Positions 32,201-34,972 of a DNA stretch of 64,000 bases are shown here, piece after piece. Both the position numbers and the translations under genes were made by a program. The first letter of the stretch is position 1. Each line of letters opens with the position of its first letter. Source of the stretch: Patescibacteria group bacterium (GTDB lineage: Bacteria; Patescibacteriota; Minisyncoccia; Phycocordibacterales; GCA-2747955); the NCBI GenBank assembly GCA_048538215.1, contig JBLYPV010000001.1, positions 139,495 through 203,494 on the forward strand, read 5' to 3'. The notes under the pieces are model-generated. The model had not been told where the DNA came from. It searched no databases and saw only the letters and a program-made list of their open reading frames with translations.

Positions 32201-34972
32201 TTATTCTACTATGAGATTACAGATCTTCCCAGGAACATAAATTACCCTCGTAATTACACCCTTATCTATCCAACGCTTAATTACATCCACTTCTTGAGAT
32301 GCATTGATTACATCCTCCTCGCTTGAGTCTGGCGCTATAGATATAGTGCCACGCGTCTTTCCATTGATTTGTATCGCAAGCTCTACCACCCGATCTGCCA
32401 ACATAGCTTCATCATATTCTGGCCACGAATAATCAGAAATGTACTTATCCTCTCCAGTAATAATACTTATGATCTCTTGCGATATATGCGGAGCAAATAC
32501 TGATAGTAATTTAATGAATTTGATGTAGCTATCTTTATCTATCTTATCTGCCTTATCTATTGCATTCACGCAAATCATTAGAGCCGAAATTGCTGTATTG
32601 AATTGGAGTTCTTGAATATCATCCCCTACTTTTTTAATTGTTTTGTGCAAAATCTTAGTGAGACTTTCTGGCGTTGATTTAGCTATTTTATCTTGCTGAC
32701 GCCATACTTTTTCCAAAAATCTATACATTCCCACTACCCCATTTTCATTCCACATTATTTCGTCCTCAAGTGGTCCTGCAAACATCATATACATACGTGT
32801 AGCATCAGCACCAAATCGCCGGACCATTTCATCCGGGTTTACCACATTACCTTTTGACTTAGACATTTTTTTGCCCTGCTTATCTAATACATAACCTTGA
32901 TGACGCAACTTAAGGAAAGGCTCGTCAAAATCAAGTAAGCCAATTGATTTCATTGCTTTTACCCAAAATCGAGCATACAAAAGATGCATATAGGTGTGCT
33001 CTGCCCCACCAATATATAAATCCACTGGCTGCCAATATTTGCAATTTTCCTTACTACACCATTCTGTATCGTTTTGTGGATCTGCGTAGCGAAGATAGTA
33101 CCAAGAAGAACATACAAAAGTATCCATTGTGTCTGTCTCAGGAGTCCACCCTTCCCCAAATAATTTTTCAGTGCGTTCGTGTAGCTCTTTACTTTCAGCA
33201 AGTGGAGCGGTGCCTCGAGGCACGAAATTTACATCAGTCGGAAGTGTCCACGGCAAATGCTCATCGGGTACCAAATGTGCCCTACCATCGGGATCATACA
33301 CGATTGGTATAGGAGCTCCCCAATAACGCTGACGGGATATCGACCAATCCTTTAGACGATATGTAGCGGTCATTTCTCCACCTACCTTTTTAGTGATCGC
33401 CTCTCCGGCTTCTTCTGAAGATTGGCCATCAAATTCTTTTGAATTAAATAAGATACCTTTATCGCAATAGATTGCTTTCTTATTTTTGTAGTTTTCTAAA
33501 AAAATTCGTAATGAATCTGCAATATTATTTTGATTTAAAGCTTCAGATATAGTCATCTCTAGTATTTTTTCTCCTTCATGAAGAACAAGCCTGGAAGTAT
33601 TTACCCCCGAGATAAAATTCATACATACATAGTGTTCGGCTTCAGCACCTTTATATGTATAGGTATCTCTAATATTTTGAGAATTCACATCTAATTCAAG
33701 CTCTTCTTTAAGCTCACGGATTATTGTATCCTGCACACTCTCTCCTTCTTCTCTGGTACCACCAAATACTGCTATTTTTCCTGGATTAGTTTTAGCATCA
33801 GTGCTTCTTTTTTGGAAGAGAAAGACTCCGGGTTTGTCTACAAGCTCTATCATTGCTCCTGCGTGTGTAATTTTTTGAGGAGCTACAACAGAACGAATTG
33901 GTAAATTATACTTTTGTGCAAATTCGAAATCCCTATCGTCATGAGCTGGCACCGCCATAATTGCTCCCGTGCCATACCCAGCCAATACATAATCAGCAAT
34001 AAATATAGGAATTTCTTCTCCTGATGCTGGATTGATAGCACTGACGCCCTCAAGCTTTATCCCAGTTTTTTCTTTGTTCTCAAGACGCTGAAGATTAGAT
34101 TTCTTACTTGTATTGTATTGATACTCCTTGATCTCCTCCAGATTCCCCAACTTGGGAGCTAAGCTCCCAAGTAGTAGGTGCTCTGGTGCAAGTACCATAT
34201 AGGTAGCTCCAAAAAGAGTATCTGGACGCGTAGTAAATACCTCAATTTGATAATCAGTGCCTTGTACCTTAAAAGTAATTTTTGCTCCCTCAGATTTACC
34301 AATCCACTCATTTTGGTTTTTCTTTGTGTGAGTCGGCCAGTCTATCTTGGAATCATCCGTATGAATTAGATCATCAGCAAAATCAGTAATCCTCAAATAC
34401 CATCCTGGAATTTCTTTTTGGACTACCTCGCTCTTACATCGCTCACACTCTCCCTGCTCTACTTGTTCGTTTGCTAAAGTAGTATGACACGATGGACACC
34501 AATTGACTGTCTGTGTATCTTTATACACAAGATCATTTTCAAAAAATCGTGCAAAGAGCCATTGTGTCCATTTATAATACGCAGGGTCAGATGTATAAAA
34601 TATGTCGCCATAATCATAGCCGAAGCCAAGTGACTTCATTTGCTTGATAAAATTCTCTCCAGCAGTGCGTACTGTTTGGCTAGGATGAATACCTGTCTTA
34701 ATAGCATAATTCTCGGCCGGCAAACCAAAAGAATCAAAGGCTTGATTGTGTAGCACACTGTAGCCCTGCATTCTTTGGTAGCGATACACTATGTCGCTTG
34801 CGGTGTATGATTCGGTATGGCCCATATGCAGACCGTCTCCTGATGGATAGGGCAGCATATCAAGCATAAAAAACTTTTCATTCGAATGAGCATTTTTATC
34901 TGTCTGGTCTACCTTCTGCTCACTCCAATGTTTTTGCCACTTTGATTCTACTTCTTTATGCTTGTACTTCAT
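32201..34972 (-). CDS. leuS: Leucyl-tRNA synthetase carrying an inserted Nudix-like domain
   Basis: '[12 protein letters not shown]' is the HIGH motif and 'KMSKSKGN' the KMSKS motif. '[12 protein letters not shown]' marks the CP1 start and '[19 protein letters not shown]' follows. An extra ~140 aa with '[24 protein letters not shown]' lies between that and '[11 protein letters not shown]'. Confidence 0.95.
   Translation of the reverse strand: [923 protein letters not shown]

Follow-up and report, generated by a model that had tools for sequence, protein, structure and literature searches.

A Nudix domain nested in the CP1 editing domain of a leucyl-tRNA synthetase from a Patescibacteria group bacterium

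The leucyl-tRNA synthetases (LeuRS) of Escherichia coli and Thermus thermophilus (PDB 4AQ7, 4ARC, 1H3N, and 2BTE) are the closest described counterparts of the protein considered here, which is encoded by leuS in a 64,000-nucleotide stretch of DNA (referred to as the window) from a Patescibacteria group bacterium (assembly GCA_048538215.1, contig JBLYPV010000001.1, positions 139,495 to 203,494). These enzymes have in common with the window LeuRS a class Ia core containing the HIGH and KMSKS signatures, a CP1 editing domain with a threonine-rich motif and a conserved aspartate (T247/T248/T252 and D345 in E. coli), and the anticodon-binding and C-terminal domains. Identity to the window protein is 33 to 35%, and template modeling (TM) scores to the best-matching chains, which are tRNA complexes, are 0.82 to 0.85. 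The window LeuRS differs in having ~124 extra residues, which form a predicted Nudix domain within CP1, and in being without the leucine-specific domain.

The top fold and sequence matches of the extra segment were small MutT-like Nudix enzymes, namely, Methanosarcina mazei MutT (PDB 3GRN), E. coli NudG/ORF135 (2RRK), Mycobacterium smegmatis MutT2 (5ZRP), NudI (6DT3), and NUDT15 (5BON). Shared features include a single-domain alpha/beta/alpha fold of ~130 amino acids (aa), a complete Nudix box, and an R...P..(W/I)..FGG motif ahead of the box. The segment in LeuRS is 16 to 22% identical to these enzymes, is embedded in a host protein, and contains an L-x-E-G motif of its own.

Aminoacyl-tRNA synthetases (aaRS) are textbook examples of domain accretion, with appended GST, WHEP, and EMAPII domains in eukaryotes and few extra domains in bacteria. 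The NCBIfam model NF040702 ([quoted passage not shown]), known here by its library name only, likewise presents an aaRS as the scaffold for an added domain. In the window LeuRS, the added domain is of another type and is nested within CP1. NadM combines an NMN adenylyltransferase with a Nudix ADP-ribose pyrophosphatase in tandem, and both halves belong to NAD metabolism. Its structure (PDB 2QJO), at ranks 15, 29, and 49 among the fold matches of the segment, is also that of a HIGH-motif nucleotidyltransferase-superfamily enzyme with a Nudix domain in one chain; the Nudix domain of the window LeuRS is instead nested in the editing domain, and no pathway shared with the host is evident. An aaRS carrying an added domain is of a known kind, and a specialist would find the combination of LeuRS with Nudix moderately surprising. 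In a 2026 survey of domain insertions (Protein Sci; PMC13114784), the LeuRS editing domain (PF13603) is a classic inserted module in tRNA synthetase hosts, with 213 events listed, 100% of them insertions, and “zero instances of host function.” Here PF13603 is itself the host of what is predicted to be a complete second enzyme, making the arrangement an insertion within an insertion of a domain that has been regarded as purely an insert.

The leuS gene is one unbroken open reading frame (ORF) on the minus strand (32201 to 34972) encoding 923 aa, and the sequence of its product matches NCBI MFW0871027.1 ([quoted passage not shown]) at every residue. The putative Nudix hydrolase domain was located at aa 367 to 500 (33473 to 33874, minus strand) by alignment to Thermus LeuRS, Pfam NUDIX, AlphaFold2 (AF2) modeling, and Foldseek. 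In the phmmer alignment to Thermus LeuRS (1h3n), query residues 2 to 364 corresponded to residues 3 to 363 and query residues 501 to 715 to residues 376 to 597, with 136 query residues standing where Thermus has a 12-residue loop (net insertion, ~124 aa). The insert is nested between the CP1 strands IRSVV (aa 359 to 363) and GILFNS (aa 506 to 511), ~20 residues past the editing aspartate. Spacing between the HDxRDxxF and YRLRDW motifs is 186 aa, compared to 57 aa in the shortest, insert-less Patescibacteria LeuRS, and the length at the insertion point ranges from 30 to >300 aa among relatives, so this point is presumably an exposed and variable turn.

An earlier sequence-only reading of the window had placed a Nudix-like domain of about 140 extra residues in LeuRS at 33458 to 33874, coordinates that translate to aa 367 to 505. 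All of the protein blocks that it quoted were found, including [22 protein letters not shown] at aa 334 to 355, [11 protein letters not shown] at aa 506 to 516, [19 protein letters not shown] at aa 538 to 556, and PGKIAVFGG...ELDV at aa 397 to 429, as was the beta-strand-like GVFLFQKR at aa 382 to 389. The proposed size was an overestimate, since the alignment gives ~124 to 130 aa, and the ~15 residues given for canonical LeuS were too few: Thermus has 26 residues between the quoted blocks (Thermus 350 to 375), and the spacing in E. coli LeuRS is about the same. By alignment to Thermus LeuRS, the segment is an extra module and not the normal CP1 or leucine-specific subdomain.

Pfam NUDIX (PF00293) matched the whole protein with 38.5 bits and the excised insert with 42.2 bits, compared to a gathering score of 21.1, so the Nudix-like sequence is not a chance motif. 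An AF2 model of aa 365 to 500, based on a homogeneous family alignment, had a predicted local distance difference test (pLDDT) score of 91.6 and a predicted TM score of 0.85. All of the top 50 Foldseek matches of the insert in the PDB were Nudix proteins (probability, 1.00; TM score, 0.61 to 0.75, normalized to query length), and the top matches included M. mazei MutT, NudG/ORF135, MutT2, BdRppH, NUDT15, and GDP-mannose hydrolase. The excised segment is thus confidently predicted to fold as a Nudix domain. Sequence, profile, fold, and recurrence among relatives agree on a LeuRS with an inserted Nudix-like domain, the architecture that had been read from the sequence.

The Nudix box (G405-x5-E411-x7-R419-E420-L421-x-E423-E424-x-E426-L427; 33692 to 33760, minus strand), assigned by family alignment as the metal-binding and catalytic helix, is nearly perfect, as had been claimed, with glutamate in place of the final glycine as the sole replacement. 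Among 110 family members, this position is variable (G in 43, E in 19, D in 18, and N in 16), and glutamate there is therefore not a defect. Residues R389, R419, E420, E423, E424, E466, and G467 are invariant in the 110-member family and are all present in the query, and the position of E411 is occupied by glutamate in 108 members; all of the Nudix-helix glutamates and the arginine are kept. E466 and G467 lie in a family-specific LHEG motif (L-x-E-G; aa 464 to 467, 33572 to 33583, minus strand), and E466 may act as an additional metal ligand or catalytic base, on the model of the downstream glutamates in MutT-type enzymes.

The nearest characterized relatives of the insert were mostly (d)NTP pyrophosphohydrolases. 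Scores of the insert against the NCBIfam equivalog models for NudG (NF007834; 22.1, compared to a cutoff of 156) and RppH (NF001936; 12.4 bits, E value of 0.1, cutoff of 118) were below the cutoffs, and there was no sequence match to Ap4A-hydrolase models. ApnA hydrolases are marked by a downstream tyrosine ~17 residues after the Nudix box. By inspection, the insert has tyrosines at +11, +13, and +21 after L427 and none at +17/18, which is a weak indication. Assignment to MutT, NudI, NudG, RppH, a CoA-ase, an ADPR-ase, or IDI was rejected, with scores far under the cutoffs.

Free-standing proteins predominated among the relatives of the insert. A profile search recovered 2866 relatives; the 120 best listed were mostly standalone proteins of 130 to 150 aa, and the few of these 120 with source names came from Patescibacteria metagenome-assembled genomes (MAGs). 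A scan of 1.84 billion representative proteins produced 674 matches at an E value of ≤0.001, and the best 150 were nearly all 130 to 150 aa in length. Against a profile of the standalone Patescibacteria family, which includes the query itself, the insert scored 117 bits. A word-index search with the insert alone, a method too insensitive for a short and divergent Nudix domain, produced three standalone Nudix proteins and no fusions; fusions surfaced only with the full-length protein as the query. Members of this Nudix family also occurred as fusions with HAD, hexapeptide-transferase, and formyltransferase proteins and with one another in tandem.

Gene neighborhoods of nine standalone relatives were mixed, of housekeeping character, and included RNase J/NDK, inorganic pyrophosphatase, pyrimidine synthesis, and sugar modification. 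Two of the nine were immediately downstream of an aaRS gene, one encoding AlaRS and the other encoding a class II aaRS with a Gly/His/Pro/Ser/Thr-type core (Pfam tRNA-synt_2b), and a third was two genes from the gene for ValRS. This adjacency is suggestive, and because the sample was small and the contexts were mixed, it was not counted as evidence. The standalone Nudix gene directly after the AlaRS gene was found on contig L084 (2208 to 4423). On another contig, a standalone Nudix gene directly follows the gene for inorganic pyrophosphatase (L088, 2544 to 3417), and on two others (L086 and L089), it overlaps the end of an RNase J-like beta-CASP gene beside NDK.

The Nudix domain recurs at the same place in related LeuRS, a survey of which had been proposed with the initial reading. 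Of the 120 most similar LeuRS in NCBI, JGI, ENA, and Logan assemblies, 37 carried a precomputed NUDIX hit, and 48 had a motif-to-motif stretch of >150 aa (motifs included), compared to ~79 aa in insert-less proteins. Inserts of ~150 aa at the same site were also present in 12 species-representative GTDB genomes (inter-motif segment, 195 to 211 aa) labeled Paceibacterota, Kaiserbacteria, Zambryskiibacteriota, Falkowbacteria, and similar, and all 12 contained the canonical REx2EE(T/S)G box. Other possible sources of this architecture were considered, namely, chimeric assembly, two genes miscalled as one, and an element resembling an intein or carried by a transposon, given that the sequence comes from a MAG and that the AT content of the insert is slightly higher than elsewhere in the gene. 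Such an origin is exceedingly improbable: the reading frame is continuous, the same in-frame architecture is found in dozens of independent assemblies as well as the 12 species representatives, and the junctions stay conserved in a comparison with as little as 52% core identity. Repeated occurrence in independent assemblies refutes this explanation for practical purposes. Repeats flanking the insert were sought, and none beyond matches of chance size were found. An intein or Hint domain was rejected, as the junctions (APQ/KITHAG and [10 protein letters not shown]) show none of the residues expected of intein junctions, with no C-terminal His-Asn, and the fold is that of a Nudix protein.

Other modules occupy the same CP1 site elsewhere, including a second Nudix type (HWxExKY...GGxExGE...REvxEETGY), nucleotidyltransferase (NTase)-like modules (PF10706/PF14907), and modules that could not be assigned. 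The NTase-like insert (GGLA...HxDLDL; weak PF10706/PF14907 hits) was found at the exact Nudix site in four LeuRS (P0046, P0094, P0100, and P0118), and since it is not homologous to Nudix, at least two independent insertions must have occurred there. Insert-bearing and insert-less LeuRS were interleaved in a rough neighbor-joining tree of the core, constructed without support values. The CP1 turn is a recurrent landing site for modules in Patescibacteria LeuRS. One LeuRS-Nudix protein was found in a MAG labeled “uncultured Gammaproteobacteria bacterium” (L003, CAYTMT010000021.1), and several others were labeled “Candidatus Saccharibacteria”; these labels probably reflect loose taxonomy or binning errors.

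The host of the insert was assigned as bacterial-type LeuRS by TIGR00396, phmmer, and AF2 with Foldseek. The TIGR00396 (leuS_bact) score of the whole protein was 889.9 bits, above the equivalog cutoff of 548.4, and phmmer E values against Thermus and E. coli LeuRS were 1e-185 to 1e-195 (~1e-195 for Thermus). The full-length AF2 model had a pLDDT score of 85.4 overall and >90 over most of the core, with Foldseek TM scores (normalized to target length) of 0.84 to 0.85 for the match with E. coli LeuRS-tRNA complexes. In an alignment of 95 sequences, H49, G51, and H52 of the HIGH signature in the class I catalytic core (HMGH, aa 49 to 52; 34817 to 34828, minus strand) were invariant, as were K702 to S706 of the KMSKS signature (aa 702 to 706; 32855 to 32869, minus strand). 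The part of the CP1 editing domain that precedes the insert (aa 225 to 366; 33875 to 34300, minus strand) was assigned by Pfam PF13603, which scored 210 bits over aa 222 to 380 (model positions 2 to 158 of 185). It contains the threonine-rich editing motif TTRPDT (aa 247 to 252; 34217 to 34234, minus strand), in which T247, T248, R249, D251, and T252 were invariant in the same 95 sequences, and the AHDDRD sequence with the editing Asp345 (33929 to 33946, minus strand), also invariant. The part after the insert (aa 501 to 537; 33362 to 33472, minus strand), defined by alignment to Thermus from residue 376 onward and by the secondary structure of the model, runs into the YRLKDW linker strand. 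Thermus residues ~583 to 636, the leucine-specific domain, had no counterpart in the window LeuRS in the phmmer alignment, an absence that is typical for Patescibacteria LeuRS of ~790 to 800 aa. The host is a bona fide bacterial-type LeuRS with intact HMGH, KMSKS, TTRPDT, and Asp345, for which leucylation and editing activities are predicted.

The somewhat favored interpretation of these results is that of two enzymes in one chain, a LeuRS and an autonomous MutT-like pyrophosphohydrolase seated in a CP1 turn that tolerates insertions; the activity, the class of substrate, and independence from the host are the deduced parts of this interpretation. CP1 is itself inserted in the catalytic Rossmann fold, and aa 367 to 500 would be a second, nested insertion, putatively descended from the free-standing Patescibacteria Nudix proteins of ~135 aa. 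The Nudix domain would then act on its own as a pyrophosphohydrolase that requires Mg2+, with a derivative of a nucleoside tri- or diphosphate ([d]NTP or NDP-X) as its substrate in a house-cleaning role, and LeuRS would contribute only a permissive surface loop and constitutive coexpression. The window Nudix domain is probably catalytically active, judging from the retention of all family-invariant residues, and for the same reason, the degenerate insert that the sequence-only reading had offered as an option is unlikely for this copy.

Several observations weigh against two independent, active enzymes. In the full-length AF2 model, which was based on a mixed alignment, the pLDDT score of the insert was 38 to 78, and the Nudix domain was not confidently placed relative to CP1, presumably because the alignment mixed nonhomologous inserts at that site. 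The insert scored below the equivalog cutoffs for MutT (TIGR00586; 22.7, compared to 97.9) and NudI (NF012016; 27.7, compared to 95). At position 390, the query has serine where 105 of 110 family members have aspartate, its sole departure from the family. The GC content of the insert was 0.346 and that of its third codon positions (GC3) was 0.231, compared to 0.404 and 0.346 in the core, and these were the lowest values for any stretch of 134 codons in leuS. The Nudix domain of LeuRS in P0005, which is the closest relative (core identity, 79%), is broken by an internal deletion of 37 aa, with loss of the strands that follow the Nudix helix. Together, the low GC3 and the broken nearest copy may mean that selection on the insert is weaker than that on the host. 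The search for further Nudix genes covered 64 kb of the 623-kb contig. Finally, the activities of several CP1 modules toward nucleotides, nucleic acids, or possibly esters, along with the aaRS adjacency of the standalone genes, hint at a functional link that goes beyond hitchhiking.

The loss of 37 residues from the core of the fold in P0005, the serine at the nearly invariant D390 position, and the low GC3 would also be expected of a dead insert, that is, a spacer, an interaction surface, or a nucleotide sensor that modulates LeuRS without hydrolysis. Some second-type Nudix inserts in LeuRS have noncanonical boxes (E to Q and R displaced), which points in the same direction. A dead insert is nevertheless highly doubtful, given that the seven family-invariant residues, including R419, E420, E423, E424, and E466, are kept and that the box is canonical in every one of the 12 species-representative inserts. 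Compared to the LeuRS of a Nomurabacteria MAG (P0122), moreover, identity was 52.2% in the core and 48.9% in the insert, and the junctions were conserved. The near-equal identities and conserved junctions indicate that the insert has descended together with its gene while subject to purifying selection, and it is conserved about as well as the LeuRS core.

The comparison with P0005 also bears on the working-enzyme interpretation. The contig that encodes P0005 (L081; JGI 3300038702) is syntenic with the window and carries an extra standalone Nudix gene (15004 to 15450; 148 aa) that starts 3 nucleotides after a class II aaRS gene and lies 5.5 kb from leuS. At the syntenic place in the window (~26690 to 27131), there was no Nudix gene, and the gap holds RNase P RNA; no other ORF with a Nudix box was found in the 64-kb window, leaving the LeuRS insert as the only one. 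This reciprocal pattern, seen in a single pair, is expected if the embedded domain is a working cellular Nudix enzyme.

A second insertion site was found at the start of CP1 (~aa 225 to 245 in window numbering), where Ham1/ITPase, Ser_hydrolase, PDDEXK_3 (PD-[D/E]XK), or Nudix modules were present (P0009, P0248, P0087, P0119, P0054, P0118, P0088, P0258, and P0297). Some LeuRS exceed 1,300 aa and contain three extra putative enzymes, as in a 1,344-aa example with Ham1, Nudix, and alpha/beta-hydrolase modules. An IleRS-like class Ia protein (P0268; 1,396 aa) has a low-molecular-weight phosphatase domain (LMWPc; aa 249 to 385) and a Nudix domain (aa 405 to 471) inserted in its CP1 region. Across the two CP1 sites, at least five unrelated identified catalytic folds were represented in Patescibacteria.

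These insertions bear on the main rival explanation, a module functionally coupled to its host, in which the Nudix domain would act on products or substrates of LeuRS and extend quality control past the hydrolysis of mischarged tRNA. Candidate targets would be Ap4A/Ap3N-type dinucleoside polyphosphates formed from the aminoacyl-adenylate and the acceptor end of the tRNA (at its 3′ terminus or at the 5′ phosphate or cap); hydrolysis of an Ap4A-type species had also been suggested in the sequence-only reading. Consistent with coupling, both insertion hot spots are in CP1 and none are elsewhere in the ~800-aa host, the Nudix, Ham1, NTase-like, PD-(D/E)XK, and Ser hydrolase modules are hydrolases or transferases whose substrates are nucleotides, nucleic acids, or possibly esters, and the IleRS-like enzyme likewise has a Nudix domain. 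The standalone relatives located next to or near aaRS genes and the presence of the RNA pyrophosphohydrolase BdRppH among the top fold matches are in line with it as well. Coupling is nonetheless unlikely. By established Nudix chemistry, aminoacyl-adenylates are not NDP-X substrates, and the Ap4A-hydrolase and RppH sequence models were not matched. Most members of this Nudix family are standalone proteins encoded in varied neighborhoods, and others are fused to unrelated enzymes. The patchy distribution of the domain in LeuRS, together with the orthologue that has an internal deletion, makes it look dispensable.

A broader form of coupling, also quite unlikely, is that CP1 of Patescibacteria class Ia synthetases serves as a platform on which catalytic modules can dock and be exchanged for one another (Nudix, Ham1, nucleotidyltransferase, PD-[D/E]XK, or serine hydrolase), acting in concert with editing. 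Such modules might clear dinucleotides derived from the adenylate, such as Ap4A, sanitize nucleotides locally, or check the acceptor end of the tRNA and repair it. If the modules are coupled to editing, they would represent a new kind of translational quality control. If, as in the favored two-enzyme interpretation, they are independent, they would be a clear natural case of nested domain insertion as gene fusion in ultrasmall genomes and would provide a map of permissive LeuRS sites for engineering.

No description of a LeuRS-Nudix protein was found in the full-text literature, with subscription-only papers outside the coverage. The suggestion that this architecture had not been described therefore holds for the literature, yet dozens of such proteins are already present, unremarked, in public databases. 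Their annotations read “class I tRNA ligase family protein” or “leucine--tRNA ligase” and no more, and such generic names hide the predicted second activity from metabolic reconstructions based on the genomes of these organisms.

The surroundings of leuS are ordinary chromosomal housekeeping DNA. Genes encoding TrpRS (36493 to 37497, minus strand) and AspRS (35023 to 36447, minus strand) are directly upstream, and TrpRS, AspRS, and LeuRS are arranged head to tail, an order that is kept in L081. Downstream of leuS are a YqeY-like gene, tRNA-Phe, and genes encoding RmuC, CofD, and a class II aaRS, with rpoB and rpoC farther off. Typical bacterial AspRS has a large insertion domain; the 474-aa AspRS of the window consists of an OB fold and a class II core and leaves no room for one. 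A class A RNase P RNA (26745 to 27095, plus strand), missed by the default Rfam scan of the window, was recovered with 90.1 bits (E value of 6e-28), under the Rfam gathering score of 100, and has the class II aaRS gene on one side and an FtsW-like gene on the other.

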